From positions 6,242-70,241 of the forward strand of contig JACQEX010000030.1 of assembly GCA_016200345.1 (NCBI GenBank): 64,000 nt of DNA. Reading direction: 5' to 3'. Under the pieces are notes generated by a model. The model saw nothing but the letters and a program-made list of their open reading frames with translations. It had not been told where the DNA came from and made no database searches. Positions 11,666 to 31,981 of this stretch are shown piece by piece; within the stretch, counting starts at the first letter, position 1; each line of letters opens with the position of its first letter. A program made the position numbers and the translations under genes. The stretch comes from Nitrospinota bacterium. GTDB taxonomy: Bacteria; Nitrospinota_A; UBA7883; JACRGQ01.

Positions 11666-12676
11666 TCAACGTCTCCTCCCCTTTGCGGTTGTGGCGAGCG
11701 GCCCGCGTTCGAACCGGTTTATTTGCGACCACAACTCCGGAATCGTGTCGCCGTGCCGCCCCTTCACGTAAAAGCTCTCGCCGCCGTCCTGCACCGTCCT
11801 CACCAACATCGTCTTCCACGGCCTGAAATAATACTGTGCGTCGCTCTTTTTCGGCTCCTTCCCGACGTCGCCGGAAAGTTGGTGAAGGTCGCACACCAGC
11901 GTCGAAAATTTTGCTATTCTCCCTCGCTTCTGCCGGGCGATGTTTCGCGCCATGCTCAGCGCCTTCAGGTAAATTTCTGGCGCCATCACGGAACTTCCGA
12001 AATTCATGGCGACCCCGCCCTCAAGGTTTTGAACGACCGAGGCGTACCTTAAAAAATCGTTGTACGACAACGCGCCTGTTGCAGCGCCGTCGCAATTTGG
12101 GTGCTCGTGCAATATGTCGTACCCTATTCCCACGTGGATGGTAACCGGTATGCCGAGCCGGTAGCCCGCGGCAAGCACGCTTATCTCCTTGTGCGGGAAA
12201 TTGCCATTTTCAATCACCCCGCCGATCGCCTCGCCCATCCCGACCTTTTTGTCCTTTTTATGCGCCTTGTTTATGTGGTCGTTTAAAAATCCGGTTTCCT
12301 TCCAAAGGCCGAACTCGCCGCGCCGTATATATTTACTAACGCTTTCCGTCGTGGCGCCAATCAGCGCAAACTCATAATCGTGAATCATCCCGGAGCCGTT
12401 AAACGCGAGGCAGGACACATATCCGCGCTCCATGAGGTCAATTAAATACCGCTGAACGCCGTCCCGCAAAACGTGGCCCCCCGCCATCAGTATCACCGAC
12501 CTTCCGTTGCGGCGCGCCCTTACGATTCGTTTCCCAACCTCCGCCAAAGAGTTGTTGCCGCATGGAACCGGGTTCAAACCCATAATCGCGCCGACGTTTA
12601 GGTCGTTGACCCTTTTGCCAAGGTCTTTGACGAGCAATTTTTTCCTGTCAATCATCTTGTTCATCTTCCGGGTCAA
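11666..12676 (-). CDS. Deoxyhypusine-synthase-like protein (tentative)
   Basis: Segment SVILMAGGHVLRDGVQRYLIDLMERGYVSCLAFNGSGMIHD aligns by eye with the DHS motif [35 protein letters not shown]. The assignment comes from memory only. Confidence 0.35.
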   Translation of the reverse strand: MTRKMNKMIDRKKLLVKDLGKRVNDLNVGAIMGLNPVPCGNNSLAEVGKRIVRARRNGRSVILMAGGHVLRDGVQRYLIDLMERGYVSCLAFNGSGMIHDYEFALIGATTESVSKYIRRGEFGLWKETGFLNDHINKAHKKDKKVGMGEAIGGVIENGNFPHKEISVLAAGYRLGIPVTIHVGIGYDILHEHPNCDGAATGALSYNDFLRYASVVQNLEGGVAMNFGSSVMAPEIYLKALSMARNIARQKRGRIAKFSTLVCDLHQLSGDVGKEPKKSDAQYYFRPWKTMLVRTVQDGGESFYVKGRHGDTIPELWSQINRFERGPLATTAKGRRR

Positions 12677-15323: not shown

Positions 15324-16628
15324 TCAGGTATTTACGACGGGACCGTTTTCCCGCCAATTCAACAAAGTTTTCGCCAGTATCTCGTGCGTAGTAAGCTCGC
15401 CGTCCGCGCCCGCCGACCTTAGATAACGCCATTCATACTCGGAGTATTTTTCAAGGTTGCACTCGCGTAGAAGCAAGGACGGCGTCAGCTCGTCCTTGGC
15501 GAGGTCCACCGGCTTGCTCCCGACGGCCCCTCCCATTACCTCCGCAAGTAAATTAGCGTGATAACTGTCCGGCATTCCCGGCACTTTCACCGGAACCACA
15601 GGTTTTTTGAAAAGCACCGCAAAACCAATCGACTGGCTTGAATGCATCAGCACCAGCTTGCTTCTCGCCACCAACTCGGCTGTTTTGTCCTTTACTATCT
15701 CCCTGCCCTCAAAAACGTCCGGCAACAAATCGTAGTTCATTCTCGGATGGGAGGCGATGACGATTTTAAGGCCCAGTTTTTTTTCAATGAAGTCAAAAAG
15801 ACGGTTCATCGGCGGATAATACCGCCCGGCGTCCGCCGGCTCCACGCCGGCCAGATAAAAATCGGGGTGCTCGGCGGCCCCTTCGTCCAAAAATACGCAG
15901 ATGTCCTCGCTCTTTGGCAACTTGTTTCCAAAACCGCGCAAGACCATTAGCGCCGCGTCGTAGTCGTGCGAATTTTTTGGCACTATTATGCCTTTGTCAA
16001 CGGCGCGCTCGTCCACAAACCGTTGGAGGGCCTCGGATTCCCCGCCAAAAATCAGGTTCGGCAACGGATAGACCATTCTATGCCTCGTTAGGAACACGAT
16101 AAGCCTCGACGCGAGGTAGTTAATGAAGTTGTACGGGCTGGACAGGGTTTTTGCTATCCGAGCCCGAAAATGGATTTTCTTCTGCCCCGTGTTCACGTTC
16201 GAGGAAGACGAAAAATCTATGACGCCTGACGCATAAATCGCATACCGGGCGTTTTGCCTTTTAAAAATTCTAAACATATGTTCTTCTCTAAGCGTCACGG
16301 CGGAATACCCCGTCACAAAGTCTATAAACATGGAGTCGCCCCGGTATTTTTTCACCAGGGCCTCATATTCCGCAAACGAGGCGACGCGATGCGTCGGCTC
16401 CCAGTTGAGCGGCTCCTTGACCATCTCAATCACCTTTGGGGCGCGGCGCCCGTTCAAAAGTAGGGTCAGGTCTATGAGAACCACCGCGAACCCCTTGCTC
16501 TTGAGATATTCCAAGCCCCATTTCTCCCCCTCGAACACGGCCACTGGCCTTTGAACGAGGAAAACTATGCGGTCTATTTTCCAATGCTCCGATCGCTTGG
16601 AATCGGGCGAGGTAATCAGGTTGCTCAT
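15324..16628 (-). CDS. Hypothetical protein, possible CDP-glycerol glycerophosphotransferase (TagF)-like
   Basis: 434 aa. C-terminal LVLMHSSQSIGFAVLFKKPVV resembles the TagF motif LITDYSSVxFDFxLLDKPII. Weak. Confidence 0.3.
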   Translation of the reverse strand: MSNLITSPDSKRSEHWKIDRIVFLVQRPVAVFEGEKWGLEYLKSKGFAVVLIDLTLLLNGRRAPKVIEMVKEPLNWEPTHRVASFAEYEALVKKYRGDSMFIDFVTGYSAVTLREEHMFRIFKRQNARYAIYASGVIDFSSSSNVNTGQKKIHFRARIAKTLSSPYNFINYLASRLIVFLTRHRMVYPLPNLIFGGESEALQRFVDERAVDKGIIVPKNSHDYDAALMVLRGFGNKLPKSEDICVFLDEGAAEHPDFYLAGVEPADAGRYYPPMNRLFDFIEKKLGLKIVIASHPRMNYDLLPDVFEGREIVKDKTAELVARSKLVLMHSSQSIGFAVLFKKPVVPVKVPGMPDSYHANLLAEVMGGAVGSKPVDLAKDELTPSLLLRECNLEKYSEYEWRYLRSAGADGELTTHEILAKTLLNWRENGPVVNT

Positions 16629-16646
16629 TCGCGGACTATTGGGAGC

Positions 16647-18671
16647 CTACAAAACCCTTATGTCGTAGTACAGGTCGGTTATCCTCATGTGTTCGCTCAT
16701 CTTCCTCATGGTGACGTTTCTGTTCGGGTGCTTGTACTGCGCCAGAAGCGTGTTCAACGCCTCCTTCTTTTCGTCCGAAAAATACAACTCGCAACGGACG
16801 TCCTTTTTGACGAGGGGCTTTTTGAATTTTTCGTCCCGCCACCCGAAGATGTCGTACTCGAACCCGACCTTGCGGACGGAGTCAAAATCAAGCTCCGCCT
16901 CGAAGTCCGATATGGTTTGCGAGGCAAAAAGCACCAGGTTTTCTATCTCCTTTTTACGTTCGGGCATCATACCGACGGCGACCTCCCTCACGAAGACGTC
17001 AAATTCCTTCTTGCACTCAAGCAGAACCCGCCACGTGTATTTTCCGTTTAATTTGCCTATCTCGCCGCGCTTAAGCATGTCGAAGTTCTCCGGCTTGCTG
17101 AAATGCGCACGAAGCTCCTCGGGGGTGGAAAACCACTCGCTTTTGGCCTCAGCCCTGAAGTCCTCGAAAATGCCTCCGACCCGGCCTTTGGCCTCGTTGG
17201 ATTTTTCCAGCATCTTGACAATGAAGTCAACGGGGTTTACGCCGTTCGAACCGAGGAATTTCAAAAGTTCAAAATAACAGCGGTAGTTCCAGAAAAACTG
17301 TATAAGCCAGTGCACGGGCCTGAAAAACAGCACCTCCTCCTCCGACATCGTGGAGGTAGAACGCACCCCCTCCTCAACCTCGAAGGACAGGAGCCCGTCA
17401 TAATTGCCGAAGGCGGTGTCCACCAACCGGAACATGGTCTTGATGGCGAACCTTTCCCTTTCCTGGGCCACGGTTAGTTCGCTACCGGCGATAAGAAGGC
17501 AGTTGTAACAAATCATGTAGCCGACGTCCCAGTCGAAAAGCCTCCTGATGGTGTTGATGTGGCTTTCCTTGGTCTCGCCCGGAAGCGCGAGTATTATCTC
17601 GGTTCCGGAAATTCCGCCCGTCTCGTTGGCCTGCTCGATTATCTCCTTGAAATGCGAGTAGTCTATGTTGCTTCTTTTGATGCTTTTAAGAACCACCGGA
17701 TCCAAGGACTGGAGGGAGGATATCAGCAGAGTGGCCTGCCCCATGATTTTTGCTATATCAATGCTCTTTTTCGTCTTTATCCAGTTGATGACGCATCTGC
17801 GCGGATAGTTTTTGGCCGCCTGAAGGTCGCGTATATGCTCCGCTATCTTCTCGTCCCTGGCCATTATGCCGAAGTTGGCGTCCGAAAAGGCGAAGAGATT
17901 CGTCTTCTCCACGCGCTCACCGATGTAGTCCAGCTCCTTGTGCACCCTCTCCAAATCAAACATCTTAATTTTGTTCTGCGATACCAGCCCCTGCGTGCAA
18001 AAGGTGCACGAGTAGGGGCAACCCCTGTTGGTCTCAACAATCGGAATGAGCGGTTCCTCAAAAAATTTATCCACCAGCCCCGTAAGGTACGGCGACGGGA
18101 TATCGTCAAGTTTTTGCAACCTTGGCAGGAATTTCCCGACGACCGGCTTTCCGTCCGCGAAGCAAACACAGCCGTCAACCGGCTCCCCCTTGGTTTTCGC
18201 CACGTCGCACCCGTTGGCCATGTAGCGCTCCAACAAATTCGCAAAGCCAACTTCCCCCTCGTTCACCACGCAGAAATCAACGGCGGGGTGCCTGCCCATG
18301 AATTCTTTGTATCCTACCTCCGAGTTATCCACGTTGGGGCCGCCCCACACTATCATCGTCTCGGGGTTCAGGGACCTCGCCAGCTTTGATATTTCGTTGT
18401 TGAGGTTTGAGTTCCAAACGTAATGGCTCATGCCGAGCACGTCGGGCGTTTTTTCCTTTAACCGCCTTATTAACCTATCCGGGTACTTGAACAGCTCCAC
18501 CTCGATTCTGTCGCCAAAGACCTTTTTGGCGTAGGCGGCTATAAACCCTATGTTCAGCGGGAACATGTGCGAGCCGTGGCCGAGGTAGTTGTGAACGAGA
18601 TCCGAAAGGTAAATTGTGGCTTTTTTATCTTTATTCATGATGCGAACTCCATTTGTATTCTGACATTCCAT
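16647..18671 (-). CDS. B12-binding (class B) radical SAM protein, large
   Basis: 674 aa (approx. 663 aa from M12). B12-binding N-terminus, CPYSCTFC motif and a long C-terminal extension. The real start is probably the internal MNKDKK at about 18638. Confidence 0.75.
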   Translation of the reverse strand: MECQNTNGVRIMNKDKKATIYLSDLVHNYLGHGSHMFPLNIGFIAAYAKKVFGDRIEVELFKYPDRLIRRLKEKTPDVLGMSHYVWNSNLNNEISKLARSLNPETMIVWGGPNVDNSEVGYKEFMGRHPAVDFCVVNEGEVGFANLLERYMANGCDVAKTKGEPVDGCVCFADGKPVVGKFLPRLQKLDDIPSPYLTGLVDKFFEEPLIPIVETNRGCPYSCTFCTQGLVSQNKIKMFDLERVHKELDYIGERVEKTNLFAFSDANFGIMARDEKIAEHIRDLQAAKNYPRRCVINWIKTKKSIDIAKIMGQATLLISSLQSLDPVVLKSIKRSNIDYSHFKEIIEQANETGGISGTEIILALPGETKESHINTIRRLFDWDVGYMICYNCLLIAGSELTVAQERERFAIKTMFRLVDTAFGNYDGLLSFEVEEGVRSTSTMSEEEVLFFRPVHWLIQFFWNYRCYFELLKFLGSNGVNPVDFIVKMLEKSNEAKGRVGGIFEDFRAEAKSEWFSTPEELRAHFSKPENFDMLKRGEIGKLNGKYTWRVLLECKKEFDVFVREVAVGMMPERKKEIENLVLFASQTISDFEAELDFDSVRKVGFEYDIFGWRDEKFKKPLVKKDVRCELYFSDEKKEALNTLLAQYKHPNRNVTMRKMSEHMRITDLYYDIRVL

Positions 18672-18674
18672 CTC

Positions 18675-19460
18675 TTAAAAAAAAGTTTTATATAGCGACG
18701 GGTTGCGATCCTGCGTCGTTGAAAATGTTTTTTTAAATTCCGAGACGCGACCCGCGTCCACGTCAAAAACGTCAAGCTCCCCGTCCGTCATTATGGGCGA
18801 AAGTTTTTCACCGTTTGGATTGATTATTTGCGTGCTTTTAACATACTCCAGACCGTTGCCGTCCGTTCCGACGCGGTTTACGCCGGCCACGAAAATCTGG
18901 TTTTCAATGGCCCTGGCCTTTAGCAGGGCGTTCCAATGGTCAATCCGCTTTGCCGGCCAGTTGGCGATGTTGATTATCAGTTCGCAGTTTTTGGCGAGCG
19001 CTCCGTAAATTTCCGGGAACCGTAGGTCGTAGCAAACCGTCAGCCCCACCGTCATGTCTCCAATCCGGGAAAAACATATTTTCTCCCCGCCGCTGAAGAC
19101 CTTGTCCTCGCCGGCAAAGGAAAACGGGTGTATCTTGGCGTATGTCCCGACGACCGCCCCGTTTGGGTCCAACATCACGCAATTATTAGTCGCCTTTTGT
19201 CCGTCCCGAAAAACAACGCCGAAAACAACGGCAATTTTAAATTCCGCCGAGAGTTTTTGAAAAAACTCCACGGTCTCTGACTCCCGCCCGTCCTCCGCCG
19301 TAGATTTAACGTTCATCGAAAAGGATGTCAGCGTCATTTCCGGGAAAACGACAAGCCCGGCGGATTGTTCCTTCGCCGTTTTAACGAAGGCGCGACACGC
19401 GTTCTTGTTGGCTTCCTTGTCTTCCCAGGCCTGGTTAAGCGAGACGAGCGCAACGCGCAT
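18675..19460 (-). CDS. Carbon-nitrogen hydrolase family protein (nitrilase/amidase superfamily)
   Basis: Glu (VVFPE), Lys (YAKIHPF) and Cys (VCYDLRFPE) catalytic triad pattern. Confidence 0.75.
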   Translation of the reverse strand: MRVALVSLNQAWEDKEANKNACRAFVKTAKEQSAGLVVFPEMTLTSFSMNVKSTAEDGRESETVEFFQKLSAEFKIAVVFGVVFRDGQKATNNCVMLDPNGAVVGTYAKIHPFSFAGEDKVFSGGEKICFSRIGDMTVGLTVCYDLRFPEIYGALAKNCELIINIANWPAKRIDHWNALLKARAIENQIFVAGVNRVGTDGNGLEYVKSTQIINPNGEKLSPIMTDGELDVFDVDAGRVSEFKKTFSTTQDRNPSLYKTFF

Positions 19461-20812: not shown

Positions 20813-21547
20813 TCACTTCGGCATTCCTATATTTTTTACGCCATTGTGCCTCATAATCGCCTCGGCCGTCACCATGTCATACTCGTCGTCAACCTCCAGC
20901 GACTTCCACTTTGGCACCTCATAGCCGATTGTGCCGCCGTGATAAAACGTCTTTTTGTCGAGATACACGTCCGTTTGACAGATGTAAATGCTTCCCTCCA
21001 GAAAGAAAACGTCCTGTATGTCCTGTCTTCGCAAAACCCTCATGTCCTCGTTTTCATAGCCGACCAAAAAGTCATCGCTCTTTTTCTTCACCAAAAACGC
21101 GGGATTTTGTCCCTCGGTTTTGCAAATCCCGACTATCGCGGAAGCCTTTGGATGCTCCGACAACTGCTCGATGGAATTATAAACGTCCCGTTTGTCCCTC
21201 AATGGGGAGGTCGGCTCCAGCAGGACTATATAGTCGAACTTTTTGCCCAGCTCGTTTTTATAAAACTCCACGGCGTGCTCGATTACGGAGAACGAGGTCG
21301 AAACGTCCGTGGCAAGCTCCTTCGGCCTTAGAAACGGAACCTTGGCCCCGAATCGCTCCGCCACGTCGGCAATCTCCCGGCTGTCTGTGGTCACCATCAG
21401 TTCGTCAATGTATTCGCACCCCAAACCGGCGTTTATGCTCCAGGCTATCAACGGCTCGCCGCACAGATCCTTGATGTTTTTGCCGGGCAGTCCCTTGGAG
21501 CCGCCGCGCGCCGGAACAATGCCGAGATAACTTTTTCCTTTGAACAT
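20813..21547 (-). CDS. neuA: Acylneuraminate (nonulosonate) cytidylyltransferase, CMP-NulO synthetase
   Basis: GIVPARGGSKGLPGKN N-terminal motif. Start at the internal ATG 21547..21545, overlapping the upstream stop by 1 nt (TAATG). The 51-codon 5' extension in the track ORF was rejected. Confidence 0.8.
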   Translation of the reverse strand: MFKGKSYLGIVPARGGSKGLPGKNIKDLCGEPLIAWSINAGLGCEYIDELMVTTDSREIADVAERFGAKVPFLRPKELATDVSTSFSVIEHAVEFYKNELGKKFDYIVLLEPTSPLRDKRDVYNSIEQLSEHPKASAIVGICKTEGQNPAFLVKKKSDDFLVGYENEDMRVLRRQDIQDVFFLEGSIYICQTDVYLDKKTFYHGGTIGYEVPKWKSLEVDDEYDMVTAEAIMRHNGVKNIGMPK

Positions 21548-22617
21548 TAATTTTTCCCGGAGTTCCTCTTGCCGACCTCGATGATGGCCGACTGCAAATC
21601 GTCCCTTCTGCCGACGTCCAGCCATGGCTCGTGCATCGGATAGGCGACGATACTTTTCCCGGCGGCCTGCAAACGCCCGAACAAAACCGGCATGTCGCAA
21701 TGGGCGTCCTTGCTTAGGGCGCCCAGAACATCCGGCTCGAGAACGTAGACCCCCGCGTTTATGTGGCTACGGGCGATGGGCTTCTCCTCGAAACCGACTA
21801 TGTCCACGCCTTTTGTCTGCACCACCCCGAACGGATGTTGCCATTCGTAAACGCGCACGGCCATCGTCGCCTTGGCCTTGTGGAAGATGTGAAAATCCAA
21901 AAGTTCCCCGTAGCGAATGTCCGTGATAACGTCCCCGTTGGTCACGACAAACGGTGCGCTTGGAACGGGGTTGAGCAGGCTCAACGCGCCCGCGGTGCCC
22001 AGCGCCTCCTTTTCCCGGAGGTAGTCTATCTTCACCTTCAACCGCTCCCCGTCGCCAAAATAATCCTCTATCATCTGCCCGAGGTAATGAACGGCGAGCA
22101 CGAAACGGTTGAAACCTTCCAGTTTTGCCCGTTCGATTATGTGCTCCAGCATCGGTTTTCCGGCGATTGGCAAAAGCGGTTTCGGGCAGGACTCCGTGTG
22201 TGGCCGAAGTCTGGTTCCCTTCCCACCCGCCATTATCACCATAAGGTTGTCCCGCCCCGCCGGTTTTGCGATTTCGTCCCAAAGATGCAGGCCGACGACG
22301 TGGTGGTTCTCGTCCACCACCGGTATCTGTTGCAGTTTATTCGCCAGCATCATCTGCCTGATGGTGTCGCGCCCAACTCCGGGCGGCACCAACATGGCGT
22401 CGCGCTGGATTACGCTGTCTATTGAACTGCTGAGGTCCAGCCCGCGCAGAAGTCCGCGGCGAATGTCTCCGTCCGAAATCGTCCCCTCCAACGCGCCGCT
22501 ATCGTTGACGACCATGACGATTTTAATGGCCACTTTGTCAAGGTTGCTAATCGCCTGTTGTATTGTGGAATGAATTGGCAGGATGGCCTGCCGCCAGCGC
22601 TCTTCAGCCAAAGTCAT
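21547..22617 (-). CDS. CBS-domain-pair sugar-phosphate nucleotidyltransferase (PtmE-like)
   Basis: Two CBS domains (N-terminal 120 aa) followed by IMAGGKGTRLRP and the NTP-transferase fold. In Campylobacter the PtmE protein has this architecture and makes GDP-GlcN in the legionaminic acid pathway. Confidence 0.7.
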   Translation of the reverse strand: MTLAEERWRQAILPIHSTIQQAISNLDKVAIKIVMVVNDSGALEGTISDGDIRRGLLRGLDLSSSIDSVIQRDAMLVPPGVGRDTIRQMMLANKLQQIPVVDENHHVVGLHLWDEIAKPAGRDNLMVIMAGGKGTRLRPHTESCPKPLLPIAGKPMLEHIIERAKLEGFNRFVLAVHYLGQMIEDYFGDGERLKVKIDYLREKEALGTAGALSLLNPVPSAPFVVTNGDVITDIRYGELLDFHIFHKAKATMAVRVYEWQHPFGVVQTKGVDIVGFEEKPIARSHINAGVYVLEPDVLGALSKDAHCDMPVLFGRLQAAGKSIVAYPMHEPWLDVGRRDDLQSAIIEVGKRNSGKN

Positions 22618-22664
22618 TCGCGCCTCCCTATTCTTGTGCCGTTCATAAAATCAAACCACCCTTG

Positions 22665-23816
22665 TTAAATGTCAAAAAATTTCTTCTTCAAGACGTCGCG
22701 CAACGGGAACGAGGCCAGGACTTTAACTATTTTTTTGCTCGCCCCCGGCCCGCCGTACGGGTTGACGACCTTCCTCAAAACTTTTGAGAACCCCGGCGAA
22801 TATAATTTTTCAAACGCCGCTGTGATTGACGCCTCGGACGGGTCGCAGTCAATCACGCTGTCGGCCCTCACCCTCCCCTTTTGCCTGTCGCCTATGTTGA
22901 TGGCGCCGATTTTAACGGAAGGCGCCTCGGTGAGGCCGCTCGAGCTGTTGCCCACGACGGCATCCACGTATCTTAGGGCGCTTAGGTATCGCAACTGGCC
23001 TAGAGAGTCGTGGGCGCACGCCTTGTCGCCGTTGCGCGCCACATAATCGTCAATCATCCGGTTGATAACCCTGCCTTCCATGTCGGCGTTGGCCTTGGTG
23101 AATATAATTTTTGTCTCTTTTAACCGGTCAATAACGTTCAATAGGGATTGAAACTGCGCCTTCGCGGACTGTTTTTCCAACGTCACGGGATGGAACGTAA
23201 CCAAAATATTTTTGGGCCCCAGCCTAAGGCCGACGGCGCGCTCAAATTTTTCCTTGGACAAAATTGGAAGTTTTTGGATGTTGTCGAGGCCCGGCGTCCC
23301 CGTTTTAAACACTCTTCGAGGATCCTCGCCAAGCTGAACAACGCGGTTTTTGTACTCCTCCGTCGCGACAAAATGCAAATGGCTCATCTTTGTTACGGAG
23401 TGCCGAATCGCCTCGTCAAACGCCCCCTCCGTGGATTCCCCGCCGTGGATGTGGGCGATCGGAATTCTTGCGACCATCGCAGCGCTTGCGGCGCTGAAAA
23501 TTTCGAATCGGTCGCCCAACACGACCACGATGTCCGGCCTTAGCTCCTCGAAGGCCTCCGCGAAGGATATTTGCGCGAGTCCCATCGCCTTTGAAATTCC
23601 AATCTGGGAGTCCGACGACAAAAGCATCTCAATTTTTTTATCAATGTCGAAATCTTTCTCGACCTCCCTATAAGTCAGCCCAAACTCCGGCGAGAGGTGC
23701 ATCCCCGTCGCAATAATCTGAAGTTTCAGCCCGCGAGTTTTTTCAATTTCTTTCATCACCCAAAAAAGATGCCCGTACTCGGCCCGGGTTCCGGTGACAA
23801 CGCAAATCTTTCTCAA
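22665..23816 (-). CDS. neuC: UDP/GDP-N-acetylglucosamine 2-epimerase (hydrolysing), NeuC/LegG family
   Basis: KICVVTGTRAEYG...HIHGGE...HPVT motifs of hydrolysing 2-epimerases. Confidence 0.85.
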   Translation of the reverse strand: MRKICVVTGTRAEYGHLFWVMKEIEKTRGLKLQIIATGMHLSPEFGLTYREVEKDFDIDKKIEMLLSSDSQIGISKAMGLAQISFAEAFEELRPDIVVVLGDRFEIFSAASAAMVARIPIAHIHGGESTEGAFDEAIRHSVTKMSHLHFVATEEYKNRVVQLGEDPRRVFKTGTPGLDNIQKLPILSKEKFERAVGLRLGPKNILVTFHPVTLEKQSAKAQFQSLLNVIDRLKETKIIFTKANADMEGRVINRMIDDYVARNGDKACAHDSLGQLRYLSALRYVDAVVGNSSSGLTEAPSVKIGAINIGDRQKGRVRADSVIDCDPSEASITAAFEKLYSPGFSKVLRKVVNPYGGPGASKKIVKVLASFPLRDVLKKKFFDI

Positions 23817-24808
23817 ATTAGCTCGTCCGTATTATAGTCTTTTTTGGCGACCTGTCCCAAAATCTCGTTCCACCTCATGGGGTTTATCCCCCCGCCGGGA
23901 CGCTTCACGGTTATATTTTCCGTCGTAAACGTTTCGCCGGCCTTTACGCCCCTTGCCGCGACTATGCTTTTGCGCGCAATGGAAATATTTTTAATCTCGC
24001 TCGGGGCGGGCTTTTTTATTCCGTCTCCCACGGCCTTTTCCACGTTTCTAATCGCCCTCACCATTTCCTTTAGTTCGTCCGGCTCCAAACTTGCCTTGTG
24101 GTCCGGCCCTTCCATTTTCCTGTCGAGCGTGAAGTGTTTTTCAATCACGCTTGCTCCCATAGCAACGGCGGCTATGGCCGCGTCTATGCCCAGCGTGTGG
24201 TCCGAGTAACCAACCCTCACGCCGAAGGCGTCTTTAATGGTCTGCATGGCGCGGAGATTGACGTCCTCCATCGGGCATGGATATTCGGTGGTGGCGTGCA
24301 AAACGGTTATTTTTTCCAGCGGAGTGCCCGCCTTTGTGAGCACCTCCAAAGCGTCCTTGATTTCCCCGAGATCCGCCATTCCGGTCGAAATTATCACCTC
24401 TTTGCGCAACGCGCCGATTTTCCGCAGATACGGAAGATTGGTAATTTCGCCGCTTGGTATCTTAAAAATATTCAGTCCCATTCCGCTCAACAAATCCACG
24501 CTGTCCAGATCGAACGGCGTCGAGAGAAACATAATCCCTTTCTTGGAACAGACGTCCATCAGCGTTCGGTGGGCCGCCTCGTTAAGCTCTAGTCTTTTTA
24601 TCATTTCGTACTGCGATTCGGCCGAGTCGGTGGTCTTTTTTTGGTACTCCGCCTTCTGCGCCCCCTTGCCGACGACCTTGTCCGCCTTGAAAGTCTGGAA
24701 CTTCACCGCGTCGGCCCCGGCTGAGACGGCAACGTCAACCAGCTTTTCGGCCAGCGCGATATCCCCGTTATGGTTTACGCCGGCCTCCGCGATTATAAAA
24801 ACACCCAC
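23813..24808 (-). CDS. neuB: N-acetylneuraminate (nonulosonate) synthase, NeuB family
   Basis: IIAEAGVNHNGD...KFQTF...GYSDHT motifs plus a C-terminal SAF domain. Overlaps neuC by 4 nt. Confidence 0.85.
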   Translation of the reverse strand: MGVFIIAEAGVNHNGDIALAEKLVDVAVSAGADAVKFQTFKADKVVGKGAQKAEYQKKTTDSAESQYEMIKRLELNEAAHRTLMDVCSKKGIMFLSTPFDLDSVDLLSGMGLNIFKIPSGEITNLPYLRKIGALRKEVIISTGMADLGEIKDALEVLTKAGTPLEKITVLHATTEYPCPMEDVNLRAMQTIKDAFGVRVGYSDHTLGIDAAIAAVAMGASVIEKHFTLDRKMEGPDHKASLEPDELKEMVRAIRNVEKAVGDGIKKPAPSEIKNISIARKSIVAARGVKAGETFTTENITVKRPGGGINPMRWNEILGQVAKKDYNTDELI

Positions 24809-24816
24809 GATGAAAC

Positions 24817-25572
24817 CTATTTCCTCTTAAAGCAAACGAGCCTTTGCGGCCCGATTCCGGAGCCCTGCAACACGTCGTCCGATTCCGCGAGGAGCCGCAT
24901 TTTCTCGTCGAAATCAAAGGCGTTTTCGCCCATCACAAACGGGGCTACGCATCGCGTTAAATAGAAGTAGGTCGAGAAATCCCTGGTCTCGACCACGGAA
25001 AAATCCCCGCTCATCAGCCCGAGCACCTTGTCGAAGTCCATATACGTGTTGTGATACGGCTCCACAAGCGGCGGCAGGCCGGCCTTGACCCTGTGCGAGT
25101 TCACATTTTCCAGCCCGCTCCGGTAGCATTCCAAGAGGCAAAAAATACCGCCCGGCTCGATCGCCCCGGCGATTTTTTTCAGGCACTTCGACTGAATCGC
25201 CCAGTCGCCCAGGTTGATGACAAATCTTTTGGTCACCACCGCGTCATAAGTCCCGAAAACGTCGCCCGAAATCAAATCAAGTTTCTGGAATTTTAATGTG
25301 TCGCCTTGAAGTTTGGACGCCCTAGACAACATTTCGCTCGAATAATCAAACCCTACGGTTTTTTTTGCTAACTTTGAGTATTGTTGCGTGTCGAATCCGT
25401 CGCCGCACCCAAAATCGGCCAGGCTGGACCACTCCCGTCCGGCGGCGTGTTTTTTAAGGGCGGAGGTTATCGAATTAATCTCGATGCTTCGAAGGTTTGC
25501 GTCCTTTAAGGAGACAACCTGCGGATTCTCCCAATGCTCCTTAGTGACCTCTAATTTTTTTGAAGTGTCCAT
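24817..25572 (-). CDS. Class I SAM-dependent methyltransferase
   Basis: LADFGCGDG motif I. Start taken at the internal ATG (MDTSKK), which gives minimal overlap with the upstream DegT gene. Confidence 0.7.
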   Translation of the reverse strand: MDTSKKLEVTKEHWENPQVVSLKDANLRSIEINSITSALKKHAAGREWSSLADFGCGDGFDTQQYSKLAKKTVGFDYSSEMLSRASKLQGDTLKFQKLDLISGDVFGTYDAVVTKRFVINLGDWAIQSKCLKKIAGAIEPGGIFCLLECYRSGLENVNSHRVKAGLPPLVEPYHNTYMDFDKVLGLMSGDFSVVETRDFSTYFYLTRCVAPFVMGENAFDFDEKMRLLAESDDVLQGSGIGPQRLVCFKRK

Positions 25573-25594
25573 TTCCCCTCTATAATTTGACGTG

Positions 25595-26752
25595 TTACCA
25601 GGAAACAATCGCGCTACTTGGAATGTTTACGACCCTATCCTCAAGCCATTTTGCGTCCGACAAATCGGTCGTCTGGCAATCTTTAAACATCGCAAGCTCG
25701 TTCATCAGCCGCCACGCCGGGCGCGTCATTACGCCCGCGTTGTTTGTCTCCCTCAAAAACTGGTCCCGCGCCCCCCTGTCCTTTAAGACGACGGCGTTCA
25801 GCCAAAAATTCGAGGCGGAGTTCGGCGGTTCCTTGACGAAGGCCATGGATGACCCGGCGAAAAACTCCTCGTATTTGCGGGCGATTTTTCTTTTGCTCTC
25901 CAAAAAGCGCGGAAGATTTTCCAACTGCGCGCATCCAAGCGCGGCGTTTATGTTTGGCAGGCGATAGTTATATCCAATTTCATCGTGGACAAACTCGTAC
26001 TGGTGCGGAACCTTCGCCGTCGTCGTTATGTGCTTGGCCCGTTTAGACAGCGCCTCGTCGTCGGTTAACACCATCCCCCCGCCGCCGGTCGTGATAGTTT
26101 TGTTTCCGTTAAAGCTCAGGACGCCCATTCTGCCAAACGTCCCGGTGTGTCTTCCCTTAAAAAAACTTCCAAGGCTTTCCGCGGCATCCTCCACCAGCGG
26201 GACGCCGAACTCGTCGCAGATTTTTGCTATTTCGTCAATCCTACACGGATGGCCGAAGGTGTGCATCGGAACCGCCGCGCCGATTTTTCGCCCCGTCGCC
26301 TTGTTAAAACAACCGCCATTTTTTCTCGAAGTCTCCTTGGATAAAAAATCTTTCAGACTTTTCGGGCTCATCCCGAGGGTGTCTCTTTCAACGTCAACGA
26401 AGACCGGCCTCGCGCCGCAATAACTTATTGCGTTGCAGGTCGCCACGAACGACAGCGGCTGGGTCAGCACCTCGTCGTCGTTTTTAACGCCGGCCAGCCT
26501 AAGCGCGACGTGCAGGGCCGCCGTGCCGTTTACGGTGGCCACGGCGTATTTGGCCCCGGTGTACTCCGACATCATCTTCTCAAAACGATCCACGTACTTG
26601 CCAACGCTTGAAACAAACGTGGTGTCTATGCAGTCCGCGACATACGCCTTCTCGTTGCCCACGAATTTTGGCTCGTGCAACGAAATAAACTCCGTCGTGC
26701 CGTAAACGGCTCGGACGAAGTCCACCGCGTCCTTGTACGATTTTTCAATCAC
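25595..26752 (-). CDS. DegT/DnrJ/EryC1/StrS-family sugar aminotransferase (LegC/PseC-like)
   Basis: GTAALHVAL...DEV...SFNGNK (PLP-lysine)...GGGG pattern of the family. Confidence 0.85.
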   Translation of the reverse strand: MIEKSYKDAVDFVRAVYGTTEFISLHEPKFVGNEKAYVADCIDTTFVSSVGKYVDRFEKMMSEYTGAKYAVATVNGTAALHVALRLAGVKNDDEVLTQPLSFVATCNAISYCGARPVFVDVERDTLGMSPKSLKDFLSKETSRKNGGCFNKATGRKIGAAVPMHTFGHPCRIDEIAKICDEFGVPLVEDAAESLGSFFKGRHTGTFGRMGVLSFNGNKTITTGGGGMVLTDDEALSKRAKHITTTAKVPHQYEFVHDEIGYNYRLPNINAALGCAQLENLPRFLESKRKIARKYEEFFAGSSMAFVKEPPNSASNFWLNAVVLKDRGARDQFLRETNNAGVMTRPAWRLMNELAMFKDCQTTDLSDAKWLEDRVVNIPSSAIVSW

Positions 26753-27635: not shown

Positions 27636-28445
27636 TTACCATGCGGACAATCCGCCGTCAACCATCAACACCTGCCCGGTGATGTAAGACGCCGCGTCTG
27701 TGCAAAGAAACAGTATCGGCGCCGCAATTTGGTCCGGGCTGGCCATTTTGTTTAACGGAACCAGCTTATTATACTTTTCCACAAACACAGGGTTTTGGTT
27801 GTCGAACACTCCGCCCGGACACACCGCGTTTACCCTGATGTTATGTTTGGCGTAATAGGTTGCGAGGTACCTTGAAAAATTAACTATCCCCCCCTTTATA
27901 AGCGAATAGGGGGCGGTCATGGTCATTGCGGTGCCCTCGTAAACCGAGAAATTAGGCCCCAAAACGCCGTAATGCGAGCCGATGTTAATCAGCACCCCGC
28001 TTTGCCTTTTTTTCATCTCCTCCAATGCCTTCTGGCAACATAAGAAATAACCGTTCATATGCATGTCCACGTTTTTTCTCATGTAGTCCATGTCTATGTC
28101 CTCGAACTTTTTGCCCCAGTCCTTCGTCCTTGGGTAGGCGTTGTTTATCCAGACGTCTATTTTCCCGAATTTTTTGACGATTTCAGCGACTGCGTTTGAA
28201 ACCGATTCGTCCGAGGTGATGTCTATTTCCGCAAGCTCCGCCTTGAATCCGGCCCCGGTTATTTTGTCCTTCAGCGCCGTTCCCCTGGCCTTGTCGTTTT
28301 CCGCGATGACCACGGTCGCGCCAGCCTCCGAAAGTGCGCGGCAAATCTCCGATCCGATGAGCCCCGCCCCGCCCGTTACGACGGCGACTTTGTCATGGAG
28401 GCTAAATTTTTCCGGAAAAATCATGTTTCTGTTCTCCTTATTCAT
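27636..28445 (-). CDS. SDR-family oxidoreductase
   Basis: VAVVTGGAGLIG cofactor motif, NNA, YSLIK (YxxxK). The start may be the internal M8 (MIFPEKF). Confidence 0.75.
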   Translation of the reverse strand: MNKENRNMIFPEKFSLHDKVAVVTGGAGLIGSEICRALSEAGATVVIAENDKARGTALKDKITGAGFKAELAEIDITSDESVSNAVAEIVKKFGKIDVWINNAYPRTKDWGKKFEDIDMDYMRKNVDMHMNGYFLCCQKALEEMKKRQSGVLINIGSHYGVLGPNFSVYEGTAMTMTAPYSLIKGGIVNFSRYLATYYAKHNIRVNAVCPGGVFDNQNPVFVEKYNKLVPLNKMASPDQIAAPILFLCTDAASYITGQVLMVDGGLSAW

Positions 28446-28477: not shown

Positions 28478-29572
28478 TTAAATAAGAGCGTCGTCCGGGC
28501 AGTCGCCAAGCTGAACCTGTCCGGACAAATACATTCCTGCCTGCCTGTTGTATTCGATGCACCGGCAGTTAGCGCAGACCCCGGCGGCGTAATTGCCGTT
28601 CAAGGCGAGGATGACTTCCCTATGGCGCGGCGAGTTCCAAACGTCCTTAAAGCGCGCGTTGTTAAGGTTTCCTATGCAATACCTTTCGTTTCCGATGTGC
28701 GGCTGGCAAAGGTACACCCCGCCGTCGTAATTTATCCAGGCCGTGGCCCTTGTCATTATGGAGGCGCATGAGTCCGGCGGCGGCTCGATTCCGATTCTAT
28801 AATCCTTGGCCGCGTAATGGTGCAGGCCACGGTTCAAAATGGAGCGCACGTTTGTGGTTTTTGGGTCGAAAATATCAATGTTCCCCTCCAAGTCGGCGCG
28901 AATTTGCGCCGCCTCGGCCTCGGAAAACTCCAGCCCCTTTTTCTCGTAGTCTATGGCAGGGATAAAAATCACGTAGTCAAAACCGGAAGCCATGGCGTTT
29001 TTGTAGACGTCCGCCACCTCGCGGTGGTTCACGCGGTTTATGACGCACCGCGCGCCGACGACGACGTTTGAGCCGTTCCCCTTGACCATGTTTGGAAGCT
29101 GAAACTGTTTTTTGAACTGGTCGCTTCCGGTTATGGCCTTGTAATGCTCCTCGTTTGTCGAGTAAATGGAAACGGCTATGTAGTTAAAGCGCCTCAACAA
29201 CGGGACGTCGGCGTCTTTTATGGCGATTCCGTTGGTGACAAGGGCGACCTCGACCCCGTTGTCCAGCAGTTTACCGGCGTATTTATCCCAGTTTTTCACC
29301 ATCGTCGGCTCTCCCCCGCCGGCCAAATAGGCGCTTTTTACGCCAAGCGACAACAGGTCGTCAATGGTTGATTCAATCTGCTCGTCGGAGACCCGGAGGT
29401 ATTTCTTTCTTCGATTGCCGTAGGAACAATGGACGCAGTCGTAATTACATGCGGAGGTCCAGTGGAACTCGACCGACACCGGCCCGAGAGAGAGCGGATC
29501 CGCCCCCTTGCGCCGTTCAAAGTGGGGCACGAATTTTTTTGCCGAAAGCAACGTCTCCAGGTTGTATTTCAT
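28478..29572 (-). CDS. Radical SAM protein (non-B12, Cys-rich C-terminus)
   Basis: CNYDCVHC motif and a C-terminal CANCRC cluster. Start set at the internal ATG (MKYNLE) to avoid overlapping the upstream gene. Confidence 0.7.
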   Translation of the reverse strand: MKYNLETLLSAKKFVPHFERRKGADPLSLGPVSVEFHWTSACNYDCVHCSYGNRRKKYLRVSDEQIESTIDDLLSLGVKSAYLAGGGEPTMVKNWDKYAGKLLDNGVEVALVTNGIAIKDADVPLLRRFNYIAVSIYSTNEEHYKAITGSDQFKKQFQLPNMVKGNGSNVVVGARCVINRVNHREVADVYKNAMASGFDYVIFIPAIDYEKKGLEFSEAEAAQIRADLEGNIDIFDPKTTNVRSILNRGLHHYAAKDYRIGIEPPPDSCASIMTRATAWINYDGGVYLCQPHIGNERYCIGNLNNARFKDVWNSPRHREVILALNGNYAAGVCANCRCIEYNRQAGMYLSGQVQLGDCPDDALI

Positions 29573-29597
29573 TTTGTCAGATATTTCCGAAAGCCGC

Positions 29598-30266
29598 CTA
29601 AAACGACATCTCCATGACGCGGCCCACGACGTCCAGCTGTTTTTCATGGTCAAAAGAATTGTTCTCCGCCGTCCATTCGACAAACGCCGGTTCGCACACC
29701 AAAACCTTGTCGAACTCCAGATTTTTTATGTCGGGATATTTGAACACGGCCGTCCCGCCGGGGGAAACCGTGCTTTCGCCGTCGCCTACGAGCCTCCCGA
29801 CAAGGACAAGCCCCTCGGAGCTGGTGATGTTGAGCGCGGCGATGTCCGCCAGCTCGTTGCTCCCGGCCACCGCAAGTTTTTGCCACCCCCTGCTTTTGCA
29901 AAGCTCCAGCTGGCTCTCCACCACTTTTTGGGCGACCTTATAAGTTCGCAGGGTGTTGCCCAAATATCTTGCGGTGAGCCTGCCTTTCTCGGCGAACCCC
30001 TCCGGCGTCATGTAATAAAGCCACCTCTTTGCGCTAACCTGTCGCGCCTTAATCCACCCCTTAGCCATAACCTTTCGCATGAACGAGTGGGCAAGGCCCG
30101 CCGCTATTCCCGTAAACGCCGTTATTTTTTTTTCGGAGATGTGCGGAAACTTTTCCACCAGGCTGAAAATGTGCATTACCACGGCGTCGTCCGCAGACGC
30201 CTTGACCGACGAATATGGGGAAACCGGCGAGAGATCCGGACTTTCCAAGGTTTGTTTGTTTTTCAT
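29598..30266 (-). CDS. Hypothetical protein with N-terminal winged-helix-like domain (putative regulator)
   Basis: MHIFSLVEKFPHISEKKITAFTGIAAGLAHSFMRKVMAKGWIKAR resembles a wHTH. Unassigned C-terminal domain. Confidence 0.35.
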   Translation of the reverse strand: MKNKQTLESPDLSPVSPYSSVKASADDAVVMHIFSLVEKFPHISEKKITAFTGIAAGLAHSFMRKVMAKGWIKARQVSAKRWLYYMTPEGFAEKGRLTARYLGNTLRTYKVAQKVVESQLELCKSRGWQKLAVAGSNELADIAALNITSSEGLVLVGRLVGDGESTVSPGGTAVFKYPDIKNLEFDKVLVCEPAFVEWTAENNSFDHEKQLDVVGRVMEMSF

Positions 30267-30350: not shown

Positions 30351-30890
30351 TTAGTACGGCTCCAATAAATCCGATTCAAGCTCCGTGACCAAAGCCCTTT
30401 TAAATAAATCCAATGAGACGATAAACCGCCCCGTCTTGGGGCTTATGCGAACAAATTGCCCGTACGCACCGGCCAGCGGCCCCGCCACAACGTGCACGCG
30501 CTCCCCCGCGACCATCGGGGTGTACGGCAGTTCGTAAACGGGCGCCGGGGAACAGGCCATCTTTTCCAGGCGCAACACCTGGTCGTTTGGGATGACGGCA
30601 GGACTGCCGTCTTGACGGACAAACCCCAAAACGCCTTTGTGAGAAAACAGCATCTTGGTTTCTACGGCCTCGATGTCGGCTTCAACAAACACGTAGTTGC
30701 TCAACAGCGGTTTTATTACGGCAACCTTCTGTCCGTTCCTTCTTTTCCACACGTCCCTTGCCGGAACGCTGACTTTTAAGCCGAAATGATTTTTGAAAAA
30801 TTCCGAGACGCTAAATTCATTTTGATGCCTAACCCTGAGCGCAAACCACCCGCAATCAACGGTGTAGGGCGAAACCAGCGCATTGCTCAT
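30351..30890 (-). CDS. NusG-family paralog (RfaH/UpxY/LoaP-like operon-specific antiterminator)
   Basis: 179 aa. NGN domain (WFALRVRHQNE...) and a C-terminal KOW (GERVHVVAGPLAGAYGQF). Shorter than housekeeping NusG and sits at the 5' end of the polysaccharide operon. Confidence 0.75.
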   Translation of the reverse strand: MSNALVSPYTVDCGWFALRVRHQNEFSVSEFFKNHFGLKVSVPARDVWKRRNGQKVAVIKPLLSNYVFVEADIEAVETKMLFSHKGVLGFVRQDGSPAVIPNDQVLRLEKMACSPAPVYELPYTPMVAGERVHVVAGPLAGAYGQFVRISPKTGRFIVSLDLFKRALVTELESDLLEPY

Positions 30891-31000
30891 AATGTGAGCA
30901 TTGTACCCCTAAAGCGGTGGAATTGGCAAATTTTATTTTGTTGTGCGACTGAAAAATGACCTTTTCAGCTATATTCATATTTATGCGGAATTAGCAATAA

Positions 31001-31981
31001 TTATGTAATGGGACAGGCGTCGTATCGGGCGGAACCATAACGATTAAAATGTTCCGTCAAAGAGTCGAGAAACGGCTCGTGTAACATCCTAGCCTCTCTT
31101 AGCGTCGGCAGGTCGCACCTGCCGTCCAGCAATATCCCCTCCACAACCGAACTCGTCGTTTCGCTTTGCAAATAGTCGAACCTTGCGTTGTGACGAACCC
31201 AAACCCATTTGCCTACGCGCGTGGCGATTTCATAGGTGTTGTCGGCCTCGCGGATTTTTAGGGCCACTTCCGCCGACGTTATCGTTATCTCCACCGGCGA
31301 GATAACTTCCCCGCAATAAAATGAAAAACCGTTCGCCCCCAAACTCCCGGAAAGCTCGCCGGAAACCTCCTTGAATCCGGGTCTTTTTGACTCAAGAATT
31401 TTCTTGTCAAGACCGCCGTTTGAAACAACCAAACCCTCGCAATCGGTCAGGTAGGCAAGCAGGTCGAGAAAATGAAGTCCGTTGCACGCCATACCCCAGC
31501 TACCGCCCGCGACTTTCAACTCAATCGGCCCCGTCCCTTTTAGCGCAGTTTTGATTTTTTTGTAGACTGGATAAAGCCTTCTTGGATGATTGACCCAGGC
31601 TCGAATATTTTTGCGCTCCAGCAGTTTGCCGACGTCCTCAAAATCGGATTTTTTTTGAAATACCACTTTTTCCAAAATAAGATTTTTAACGCCCTTCTTC
31701 TCCGCCAATTCCCTCACCAAATTAGAACGAACGTCGGCGTTGGTGGCGACTATAGCGAGGTCCAACTCGTCAGACAGACCCGAGACTCCGTCTCGGACCA
31801 CCAATTCCATGGCCTCGCTTCCGACAATCTCTTTAAACCTGGACAGGGCCGTATTTATAGCCCCTTCAGAGCGCCCCACCACCTCTATGCTTGCACCAAT
31901 CCCAAGTCCGGCCAACCCCTGCAAGTATCTGCTTCCGATTTGGCCGGGGCCGATTAACGCGATTTTGAACGTCTTGGTCAT
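31001..31981 (-). CDS. Gfo/Idh/MocA-family oxidoreductase
   Basis: KIALIGPGQIGSRY Rossmann N-terminus and an EKV motif. First gene downstream of the palindrome array. Confidence 0.75.
   Translation of the reverse strand: MTKTFKIALIGPGQIGSRYLQGLAGLGIGASIEVVGRSEGAINTALSRFKEIVGSEAMELVVRDGVSGLSDELDLAIVATNADVRSNLVRELAEKKGVKNLILEKVVFQKKSDFEDVGKLLERKNIRAWVNHPRRLYPVYKKIKTALKGTGPIELKVAGGSWGMACNGLHFLDLLAYLTDCEGLVVSNGGLDKKILESKRPGFKEVSGELSGSLGANGFSFYCGEVISPVEITITSAEVALKIREADNTYEIATRVGKWVWVRHNARFDYLQSETTSSVVEGILLDGRCDLPTLREARMLHEPFLDSLTEHFNRYGSARYDACPIT

Follow-up and report, generated by a model that had tools for sequence, protein, structure and literature searches.

Locus and gene content

The stretch of DNA analysed here (the window, 64,000 nucleotides (nt) in length) contains at positions 20813-26752 a group of six genes resembling those for the biosynthesis of legionaminic acid (Leg), and this group is the subject of the present study. 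Leg is a bacterial surface sugar that is similar to sialic acid and can act as its mimic. In the original prediction the group had been described as a complete nonulosonic acid (NulO) module with a PtmE-like nucleotidyltransferase, pointing to a GDP-linked route to a Leg-type sugar. The interval is filled by six open reading frames (ORFs) on the minus strand, with 8-47 nt between neighbours or overlaps of 1-4 nt. In the direction of transcription these are:

25595-26752, minus strand: LegC-family 4-aminotransferase (385 amino acids, aa); TIGR04181 568 bits, cutoff 420
24817-25572, minus strand: class I S-adenosylmethionine (SAM) methyltransferase (251 aa); Methyltransf_11/25/31 domains
23813-24808, minus strand: LegI-like nonulosonate synthase (331 aa); NeuB_NnaB TIGR03569 529 bits, cutoff 400
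22665-23816, minus strand: LegG-like nucleoside diphosphate (NDP)-sugar hydrolysing 2-epimerase (383 aa); NeuC_NnaA TIGR03568 477 bits, cutoff 236
21547-22617, minus strand: PtmE/LegX-like CBS-pair nucleotidyltransferase (356 aa); CBS and NTP_transferase domains; predicted glucosamine-1-phosphate (GlcN-1-P) guanylyltransferase
20813-21547, minus strand: LegF-like CMP-nonulosonate synthetase (244 aa); Pfam CTP_transf_3, in the LegF position

The proteins of the cluster are 100% identical to GenBank entries of a Nitrospinota metagenome-assembled genome (MAG), where they are encoded on a 75 kb contig. The PtmE-like protein is MBI3793721.1, and the LegC homolog, a DegT protein, is already named 'LegC family aminotransferase' at NCBI. 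The six genes had been typed correctly, as judged from the same-strand ORFs and the Pfam and NCBIfam assignments, but two gene starts had to be moved. The NeuA-like gene (legF) starts with the ATG at 21547 and not at 21700, overlapping the stop codon of the upstream gene in the sequence TAATG. The start of the methyltransferase gene was corrected to Met13, which agrees with the NCBI protein MBI3793724.1.

The core enzymes are of the Leg type

Matches to solved structures were of limited use for the synthase, since SpsE (193 bits, the top match), PseI (193 bits) and NeuB of Neisseria meningitidis (183 bits) scored almost alike. Because the PDB matches failed to separate the enzymes of Leg, pseudaminic acid (Pse) and sialic acid (Neu) synthesis, reference sequences were fetched from Campylobacter jejuni and a tree was built. 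A PseI sequence rebuilt from the 8h2c alignment served as the anchor for fetching Campylobacter loci. One of them, from C. jejuni 414 (locus L010), has the order pseI, maf, legB, legC, ptmG, a frameshifted ptmH, legI, legG, ptmE and ptmF; legF lies beyond its end. Each of LegC, LegI, LegG and PtmE of the window and its C. jejuni 414 ortholog were the sole match of one another in either direction.

The LegI homolog shows 59.8% identity to LegI of C. jejuni, as against 40% to SpsE, 36% to N. meningitidis NeuB and 35% to C. jejuni PseI, and it reaches 297 bits with the PseI model, under the cutoff of 340. In a neighbour-joining tree (200 bootstraps) of the NeuB family, which included one true NeuB reference (that of N. 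meningitidis), it grouped, with 100% support, with LegI of C. jejuni and further LegIs, away from the true NeuB. This placement had been proposed as a check of the original prediction, and its outcome agrees with the predicted affiliation.

The neighbouring enzymes gave the same picture. LegC is 48.9% identical to its C. jejuni 414 counterpart and reaches 232 bits with the PseC model, under the cutoff of 423. LegG is 46.7% identical to C. jejuni LegG; its best PDB match, 5xvs/5zlr, is annotated as 'GDP/UDP-N,N'-diacetylbacillosamine 2-epimerase (hydrolyzing)' and scores 326 bits, compared with 57 bits for SiaA of N. meningitidis. The PtmE-like protein is a full-length homolog of C. jejuni 414 PtmE (33.4% identity over 332 aa including the CBS region, E about 5e-65). 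In the PDB the LegF-like protein matches CMP-sialic acid synthetases, which is not discriminating. It scores 151 bits with the PseF model (cutoff 205) and is 28% identical to C. jejuni PseF, 35% to the LegF-position proteins of Sulfuritalea and Methylotenera MAGs and 70% to the protein encoded in the LegF position of L102. L102 (Logan ERR9118888) and L103 (Gallionella MAG GCA_030682375.1) are environmental proteobacterial Leg clusters.

Of the five enzymes, the homologs of LegC, LegI, LegG and PtmE thus have a Leg-type affiliation, and the LegF-like protein is a putative fifth member. Judged by these comparisons, the core belongs to the Leg pathway rather than to that of N-acetylneuraminic acid (Neu5Ac) or Pse. 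The Campylobacter-like Leg core of the original prediction has therefore held up: the NeuB and NeuC homologs lie outside the true sialic acid enzymes, and the CBS-nucleotidyltransferase is related to PtmE.

No 4,6-dehydratase and no N-acetyltransferase are encoded nearby

The Leg clusters of Sulfuritalea and Methylotenera MAGs show the canonical order LegB-LegC-LegH-LegI-LegG-PtmE-(GFO)-LegF-...-SDR, SDR denoting a short-chain dehydrogenase/reductase. The 4,6-dehydratase gene (legB) is directly upstream of legC in these clusters and the acetyltransferase gene (legH) directly downstream. Both were searched for by tblastn (E <= 1e-3 to 1) in the window and in its leftward extension L001, a Logan contig that is 100% identical to window positions 1-1000 and adds 6.4 kb, so that about 70 kb were covered. 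The queries were three LegBs (from C. jejuni, Sulfuritalea and Methylotenera), two LegHs and two further hexapeptide transferases. Neither a LegB nor a Polysacc_synt_2 dehydratase of the PglF/SpsM type was found in the window and L001, and no LegH/NeuD/PglD acetyltransferase was detected there at E <= 1. The sole hexapeptide/NeuD-type match at this threshold was a spurious 49-aa stretch in murD. Positive controls matched the respective models, with 535 and 465 bits for the dehydratase and 164-191 bits for TIGR03570. The description of the module as complete can therefore not be kept.

Two genes were considered as LegB candidates and rejected. The 314-aa SDR encoded at the operon's far end (L001:18979-19923) is only 25-27% identical to LegB, while bona fide LegBs share at least 51% identity among themselves. 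It scores 105 bits with TIGR04180 (cutoff 475), has GTCEEYG in place of the LegB motif STSEVYG, and has UDP-glucuronic acid 4-epimerases and the GDP-4-keto-6-deoxymannose reductase Rmd as its nearest solved relatives. The second candidate, an RmlD-like gene (4908-5774), showed only about 21% identity.

Enzymes encoded elsewhere in the genome probably provide the missing steps. Such supply in trans has precedents. In Bacillus subtilis, spsM lies at a locus apart from the other sps genes (PMC7439481), and the Leg genes of Brevundimonas are distributed over three loci (bioRxiv 10.1101/2022.03.25.485807). Likewise, LegH had no match in the C. jejuni locus L010 and is thus encoded outside the leg locus of that organism.

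We consider it reasonably probable that the locus represents the core of a pathway for a Leg-type sugar (a 5,7-diamino-3,5,7,9-tetradeoxy-nonulosonic acid), that the missing steps come from elsewhere in the genome and that methyltransferases tailor the sugar. Several points weigh against this interpretation. In addition to the two negative searches, the supply in trans is an assumption, as the search covered the window and L001. The location of a methyltransferase gene in the legH position fits a functional replacement as well as tailoring. Finally, the closest relatives of the window LegC (72-77% identity) are paired with dehydratases of the Polysacc_synt_2 type, which bears on the nucleotide used. 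The last two points are taken up in the following sections.

A rare methyltransferase in the position of LegH

The class I methyltransferase encoded between legC and legI is rare. Only 27 homologs (44-70% identity) were found among 5.8 billion clustered proteins and 11 loci in the metagenome collection of the Joint Genome Institute (JGI). An exhaustive profile search of 1.84 billion representatives yielded only two matches that exceeded 350 bits and some seven others with 185-240 bits. After merging identical copies, 12 distinct loci with this methyltransferase remained besides the window.

Their gene order is nearly uniform. LegC is encoded directly before the methyltransferase in 10 of the 11 distinct loci in which that flank is visible, and LegI directly after it in nine of ten. 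All six loci that extend far enough have legB before legC. A hexapeptide acetyltransferase or LegH was found in none of these loci, nor in the window. In one of them (L098), the LegB, LegC, LegI, LegG and PtmE encoded around the methyltransferase are 83-91% identical to the proteins of LegH-type clusters, and in the tree the LegIs of methyltransferase-type clusters are interspersed among those of LegH-type clusters. The exchange is seen on two backgrounds, the LegB type (L087, L089, L098) and the LegC lineage of the window. On this distribution it looks as if LegH has been swapped for the methyltransferase as a cassette, on more than one cluster background.

In one methyltransferase-type locus, L088, insertion sequence (IS) elements with rve and HTH_Tnp_1 transposase genes (L088:5809-7295 and 16608-17770) flank the Leg cluster and truncate its legC, which shows that clusters of this type are being actively rearranged.

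What the enzyme does can be approached by comparison. PtmH (Cj1325/6) of C. jejuni and ORF8 of Legionella are N-methyltransferases acting on the 5-acetimidoyl group of Leg and, like the gene studied here, theirs lie directly beside a NeuB-family gene. An identification as PtmH was nevertheless rejected, since BLASTP gave only 28 bits, confined to SAM motif I. In addition, the window contains no amidino-forming enzyme of the PtmG or PseA type, so that an acetimidoyl substrate is not evident. The SAM motif DFGCGDG and Asp76 are invariant among the homologs. An AlphaFold model (pLDDT 93) retrieved only generic class I methyltransferases with Foldseek. Weak matches by sequence or fold included DesVI, CalS10 and NodS, which are sugar or amine N-methyltransferases, but also O- and C-methyltransferases, and the PDB, AlphaFold and Foldseek searches gave no assignment to N-, O- or C-methylation.

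In the C. jejuni 414 locus itself, a frameshift in a poly-G tract splits ptmH (L010:16200-16940), consistent with the phase variation known for Cj1325/6.

An explanation quite different from tailoring is that the methyltransferase chemically replaces LegH. It would then N-methylate the NDP-4-amino-4,6-dideoxy-N-acetylglucosamine made by LegC, as NDP-aminosugar N-methyltransferases do, and LegG and LegI would convert the product to a Leg derivative with a 7-(methyl)amino instead of a 7-acetamido group. The exact location of the gene in the canonical legH position, the lack of a hexapeptide acetyltransferase in these loci and the window, the swap on both backgrounds, the 83-91% identity of the flanks in L098 to LegH-type clusters, the invariant SAM-binding residues and the weak similarity to DesVI, CalS10 and NodS all speak for such a replacement. 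Against it, columns separating methyltransferase-type from LegH-type clusters numbered zero in LegI, three in LegG (p = 0.17) and one in LegC (p = 0.41), none of which exceeds random partitions. This fits an unchanged substrate and gives no sign of an altered pocket. Moreover, PtmH and ORF8 act late, on CMP-Leg5Am7Ac, in spite of their location beside a NeuB-family gene; the C. jejuni leg locus lacks LegH as well; the matches by fold and in the PDB are generic; and no natural N7-methylamino nonulosonic acid was found in literature searches. The positional evidence favours replacement, while the lack of distinguishing columns in LegI, LegG and LegC, the late-acting neighbours and the precedents for split loci favour tailoring. 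On balance we regard the replacement of LegH as unlikely and tailoring by the methyltransferase as the better explanation.

GDP- or UDP-linked intermediates

Belief in a GDP route has a single basis, the presence of the PtmE homolog, from which it appears likely that the pathway of the window uses GDP-linked intermediates. With GlcN-1-P as the substrate C. jejuni PtmE is specific for GTP, and GDP-N-acetylglucosamine (GDP-GlcNAc) is the sole substrate accepted by LegB of C. jejuni and Tannerella. LegX, the PtmE ortholog of Brevundimonas with two CBS domains and a nucleotidyltransferase domain, is genetically required for Leg synthesis (bioRxiv 10.1101/2022.03.25.485807), and PtmE/LegX has been proposed as a bioinformatic marker for Leg pathways. 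The PtmE of the window is 76-77% identical to the product of the same-position gene in canonical Leg clusters. Its family is very large and highly conserved, with at least 8000 matches at E <= 1e-20, and the best 120 are 73-79% identical, the named ones among them including betaproteobacterial MAGs (Sulfuritalea, Methylotenera).

The use of GDP is made uncertain by the partners of LegC. A second group of LegCs (those of Gallionella, Devosia and others), which neighbour Polysacc_synt_2 dehydratases, shares 72-77% identity with the window LegC, as compared with 55-57% for LegCs paired with LegB, and the characterised Polysacc_synt_2 members (PglF, PseB, SpsM) act on UDP-GlcNAc. The sugar might therefore be of the Leg type but made through UDP-linked intermediates as in B. 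subtilis and Legionella, with a PglF/SpsM-like dehydratase encoded elsewhere and another or a redundant role for the PtmE-like enzyme. SpsM, itself a Polysacc_synt_2 protein with its gene at a separate locus, takes UDP-GlcNAc as its substrate in the Leg synthesis of B. subtilis (PMC7439481). The solved LegG homolog is annotated as taking both GDP and UDP. However, a PtmE homolog is retained between LegG and LegF in those clusters that have a Polysacc_synt_2 dehydratase, the one of L102 being 76% identical to that of the window, and the requirement for LegX in Brevundimonas and the GTP specificity of C. jejuni PtmE also argue for a GDP route. A UDP-linked pathway appears doubtful to us, and GDP-linked intermediates are preferred.

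Decay or a different sugar

The locus might also be a decaying remnant that has lost the dehydratase and the acetyltransferase and no longer directs the synthesis of a nonulosonic acid. It is true that the two essential genes flanking legC in the closest relatives are absent here. Yet the whole block from the radical SAM/SPASM gene at 28478-29683 to the carbon-nitrogen hydrolase gene at 18675-19460 consists of full-length genes without frameshifts, is tightly spaced within one operon and shows 59-78% identity to its orthologs along its whole length, and the same exchange of LegH for the methyltransferase is seen in 12 other distinct loci. Decay is thus very improbable. A true Neu5Ac or Pse cluster is hardly conceivable, because the Neu5Ac-pathway names that NCBIfam gives to the NeuB and NeuC homologs result from models which also cover LegI and LegG, while a LegC aminotransferase is present, the NeuC-like protein prefers the diacetylbacillosamine epimerase to SiaA and the NeuB-like protein LegI to NeuB and PseI (scores and identities above), the PseI, PseC and PseF models all stay below their cutoffs, and there is a hydrolysing 2-epimerase, which the Pse pathway lacks, but no PseG.

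Neighbouring genes

The genes on both sides of the core and at the head of the operon are listed below.

18675-19460, minus strand: carbon-nitrogen hydrolase family protein; CN_hydrolase 143 bits
19460-20767, minus strand: class III aminotransferase ('GSA aminomutase-like'); PRK06209 680 bits
26866-27567, minus strand: TylF-like (Methyltransf_24) methyltransferase; Pfam TylF 65 bits; in the position of the relatives' 4,6-dehydratase
27636-28445, minus strand: PtmA-like SDR (269 aa); PRK09186 256.9, cutoff 255
28478-29683, minus strand: radical SAM/SPASM enzyme; Radical_SAM and SPASM domains; membership in the Leg module uncertain
30351-30929, minus strand: UpxY/NusG-like antiterminator at the operon head; NF033644 90 bits, below the cutoff of 100; Pfam NusG 54 bits
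31001-31981, minus strand: GFO/IDH/MocA-family oxidoreductase; GFO_IDH_MocA N-terminal domain 27 bits, cutoff 24

The class III aminotransferase is 78-79% identical to the product of the gene after legF in L102, L089 and L098, and the carbon-nitrogen hydrolase is 64% identical to those encoded in the same position in L102 and L098. Because of this strong identity and synteny with L102, both genes are conserved members of the L102-like cluster type. The oxidoreductase encoded at 31001-31981 shares 49% identity over 322 aa with the product of the gene directly after legF, i.e. in the PtmF position, in the Gallionella cluster L103; its similarity to C. jejuni PtmF itself is marginal (24% over 144 aa, E = 0.003).

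The original prediction had taken the class I methyltransferase together with the TylF-like methyltransferase and the SDR as signs of a methylated or further tailored sugar. The genes are there, but this reading needs revision. The SDR stays below the cutoff of the PtmA model NF050062 (183 against 350). It is 41% identical to the SDR encoded after LegF, in the PtmA position, in a Campylobacter MAG. It is also 31-37% identical to SDRs of the Sulfuritalea, Methylotenera, L087, L089 and L102 Leg clusters and 26% identical to that of L098, where the ORF is truncated. PtmA is part of the segment that provides the precursor GDP-GlcNAc, and Leg glycosylation of the Plesiomonas flagellin depends on it. 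By sequence and position the SDR appears to be a usual, PtmA-like member of Leg clusters and is no evidence of tailoring, and the class I methyltransferase, as stated above, is unrelated to PtmH.

The case for the TylF-like methyltransferase is different. A homolog (54% identical) is encoded beside DegT, dehydratase, CMP-synthetase and PseI genes in a SAR11 single-cell genome. These two cases weakly suggest that the enzyme may act on a NulO or a NulO precursor. The same SAR11 locus (L085) encodes, at 3283-4668, a 461-aa fusion of a CBS domain with an NAD-dependent epimerase/dehydratase, adjoining the DegT aminotransferase, the TylF-like methyltransferase, the CMP-NulO synthetase, a sulfotransferase and the PseI-like synthase. 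A CBS domain on the dehydratase instead of the nucleotidyltransferase is unusual.

The other Leg clusters fetched yielded no ortholog of the radical SAM/SPASM enzyme; the sole match was a radical SAM gene of L087 at 23% identity. If LegH has indeed been replaced by the class I methyltransferase, the occupation of the dehydratase slot in the window by the TylF-like methyltransferase, the SDR and the radical SAM enzyme would hint at a further rewired early pathway.

Proposed pathway

In the scheme that we prefer, the PtmE/LegX-like enzyme would activate GlcN-1-P with GTP, and a housekeeping acetyltransferase would convert the product to GDP-GlcNAc. The PtmA-like SDR and the GFO oxidoreductase are placed in this precursor segment. 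A 4,6-dehydratase encoded outside the locus would then form NDP-4-keto-6-deoxy-GlcNAc, which LegC would transaminate at C4. Acylation of the 4-amine, again by an enzyme encoded outside the locus, would be followed by the action of LegG, which would remove the nucleotide and epimerise C2. LegI would condense the resulting sugar with phosphoenolpyruvate, and LegF would provide the CMP-sugar. Methylation of the sugar or one of its intermediates would fall to the rare class I methyltransferase and the TylF-like methyltransferase, and the class III aminotransferase and the carbon-nitrogen hydrolase would probably remodel an N-acyl group. The nucleotide specificity, the supply of two steps in trans and the targets of methylation are what we infer in this scheme.

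Genomic setting

The Leg module lies inside a surface-glycan operon of about 37 kb that comprises window positions 982-30890 and L001:12867-20234. All large ORFs from about 980 to 30890 are on the minus strand and tightly packed. At the operon head there are, besides the UpxY/NusG-like antiterminator gene, a MarR-EPS-like regulator and a promoter-like site, the best minus-strand match to a sigma-70-like sequence (30929-30900). The right end of the window carries an ordinary dcw cell-division cluster, which identifies the DNA as chromosomal. Since the operon contains no flagellin or maf genes, a polysaccharide or lipo-oligosaccharide is most likely decorated by the sugar.

The operon is unusually rich in radical SAM genes. 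Four encode B12-binding enzymes (982-2496, 13896-15284, 16647-18671 and L001:17503-18975) and three are of the radical SAM/SPASM type (3817-4902, 7994-9061 and 28478-29683). It further contains heptose-pathway genes, a split transketolase, two Nudix hydrolase genes, FkbM and further methyltransferase genes, and genes for LA_1612-family and GSU2086-family proteins, a TIGR04372 glycosyltransferase and a PglK/MsbA-like ABC exporter. Among the heptose-pathway genes, one (9643-11187) encodes an HldE-like protein with reversed domain order, the adenylyltransferase standing at the N-terminus and the PfkB kinase at the C-terminus. Behind it lies an additional gene for a stand-alone rfaE domain-II nucleotidyltransferase (11190-11894), and gmhA (9054-9632) adjoins it. 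The operon as a whole probably serves to make a higher sugar that is heavily C-methylated or rearranged.

A similar gene set is present on the unrelated metagenomic contig L087, just upstream of its methyltransferase-type Leg cluster. There, L087:1-7759 resembles window positions 2944-9061, with N- and C-terminal transketolase halves (39% and 30% identical), a radical SAM enzyme, a methyltransferase, a Nudix hydrolase and an RmlD-like epimerase. There may be a functional link between these tailoring genes and the methyltransferase-type Leg variant.

Two further ORFs were noted. The 914-aa ORF at 32142-34886, upstream of the operon on the same strand, showed only a weak match to PMT_2 (ArnT/PMT-like glycosyltransferases) and is a possible glycan or lipid-carrier transferase. 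In the ORF at 35446-36537, a ZupT-like region of a zinc transporter is joined to a cupredoxin segment of the CopI kind.

Significance

In our judgement the locus represents an unusual version of a pathway of a known kind. The prediction of nonulosonic acids from genomes depends on the recognition of cluster types, and the present case indicates that a PtmE-containing Leg core can exist without a linked dehydratase and acetyltransferase. It is therefore unsafe to call a cluster complete from the presence of NeuA, NeuB, NeuC and DegT homologs. The clusters with the rare methyltransferase in the LegH position form a small Leg cluster variant that had previously gone unremarked. If N-acetylation were truly replaced in them, they would make a new, charge-altered nonulosonic acid and would define a new family of sugar N-methyltransferases. 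A 7-(methyl)amino Leg would be positively charged or zwitterionic and would be without a described natural counterpart. Otherwise the locus would simply add to the environmental Leg clusters with methyl tailoring.

Comparison with known Leg systems

The B. subtilis sps route is unlike the proposed pathway in being UDP-linked, and a PtmE-type enzyme is not named among the sps pathway enzymes in the excerpted text of PMC7439481.

More is shared with C. jejuni, in which CMP-Leg is made by PtmE, LegB, LegC, LegH, LegG, LegI and LegF together with PtmA and PtmF (Schoenhofen et al. 2009, via PMC5378307 and PMC4481668). The window has homologs of PtmE (33% identity), LegC (49%), LegG (47%), LegI (60%), LegF and PtmA. 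Its order methyltransferase-LegI-LegG-PtmE-LegF parallels ptmH-legI-legG-ptmE of C. jejuni 414, and a Campylobacter sp. MAG (L072) shows LegI-LegG-PtmE-...-LegF-PtmA. Unlike C. jejuni, the window is without PtmG, and LegB and LegH are missing from the 70 kb covered. The setting differs as well: the C. jejuni genes belong to a flagellin glycosylation island, those of the window to a polysaccharide-type operon with a UpxY/NusG-like antiterminator and a PglK-like ABC transporter.

The LegB-type clusters of Sulfuritalea and Methylotenera (L003-L006) are comparable to the Leg gene region of Plesiomonas and to the Escherichia coli Elg homologs given in Table 5 of its description. As self-contained clusters they include LegB, LegH and a PtmF-type GFO oxidoreductase, whereas the window has neither LegB nor LegH. 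The order of the core is alike and a PtmA-like SDR is present in both; the identities are 76-77% for PtmE, 63-66% for LegI, 58-60% for LegG and 55-57% for LegC.

The best synteny matches are L102 and L103. In these clusters a 395-aa Polysacc_synt_2 dehydratase is followed by LegC, LegH (of the NeuD/PglB family), LegI, LegG, PtmE, LegF, the class III aminotransferase, a methyltransferase, the carbon-nitrogen hydrolase and the SDR. Two slots are filled differently in the window. Upstream of legC the dehydratase gene is replaced by the gene for the TylF-like methyltransferase, preceded by the SDR and radical SAM/SPASM genes, and downstream of legC the NeuD/PglB-family acetyltransferase gene is replaced by that of the rare class I methyltransferase. 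The remaining order, LegC-[slot]-LegI-LegG-PtmE-LegF-class III aminotransferase-...-carbon-nitrogen hydrolase-SDR, is common to all three at 59-78% identity, the values for L102 being 74% for LegC, 71% for LegI, 59% for LegG, 76% for PtmE, 70% for LegF, 78% for the class III aminotransferase and 64% for the carbon-nitrogen hydrolase.

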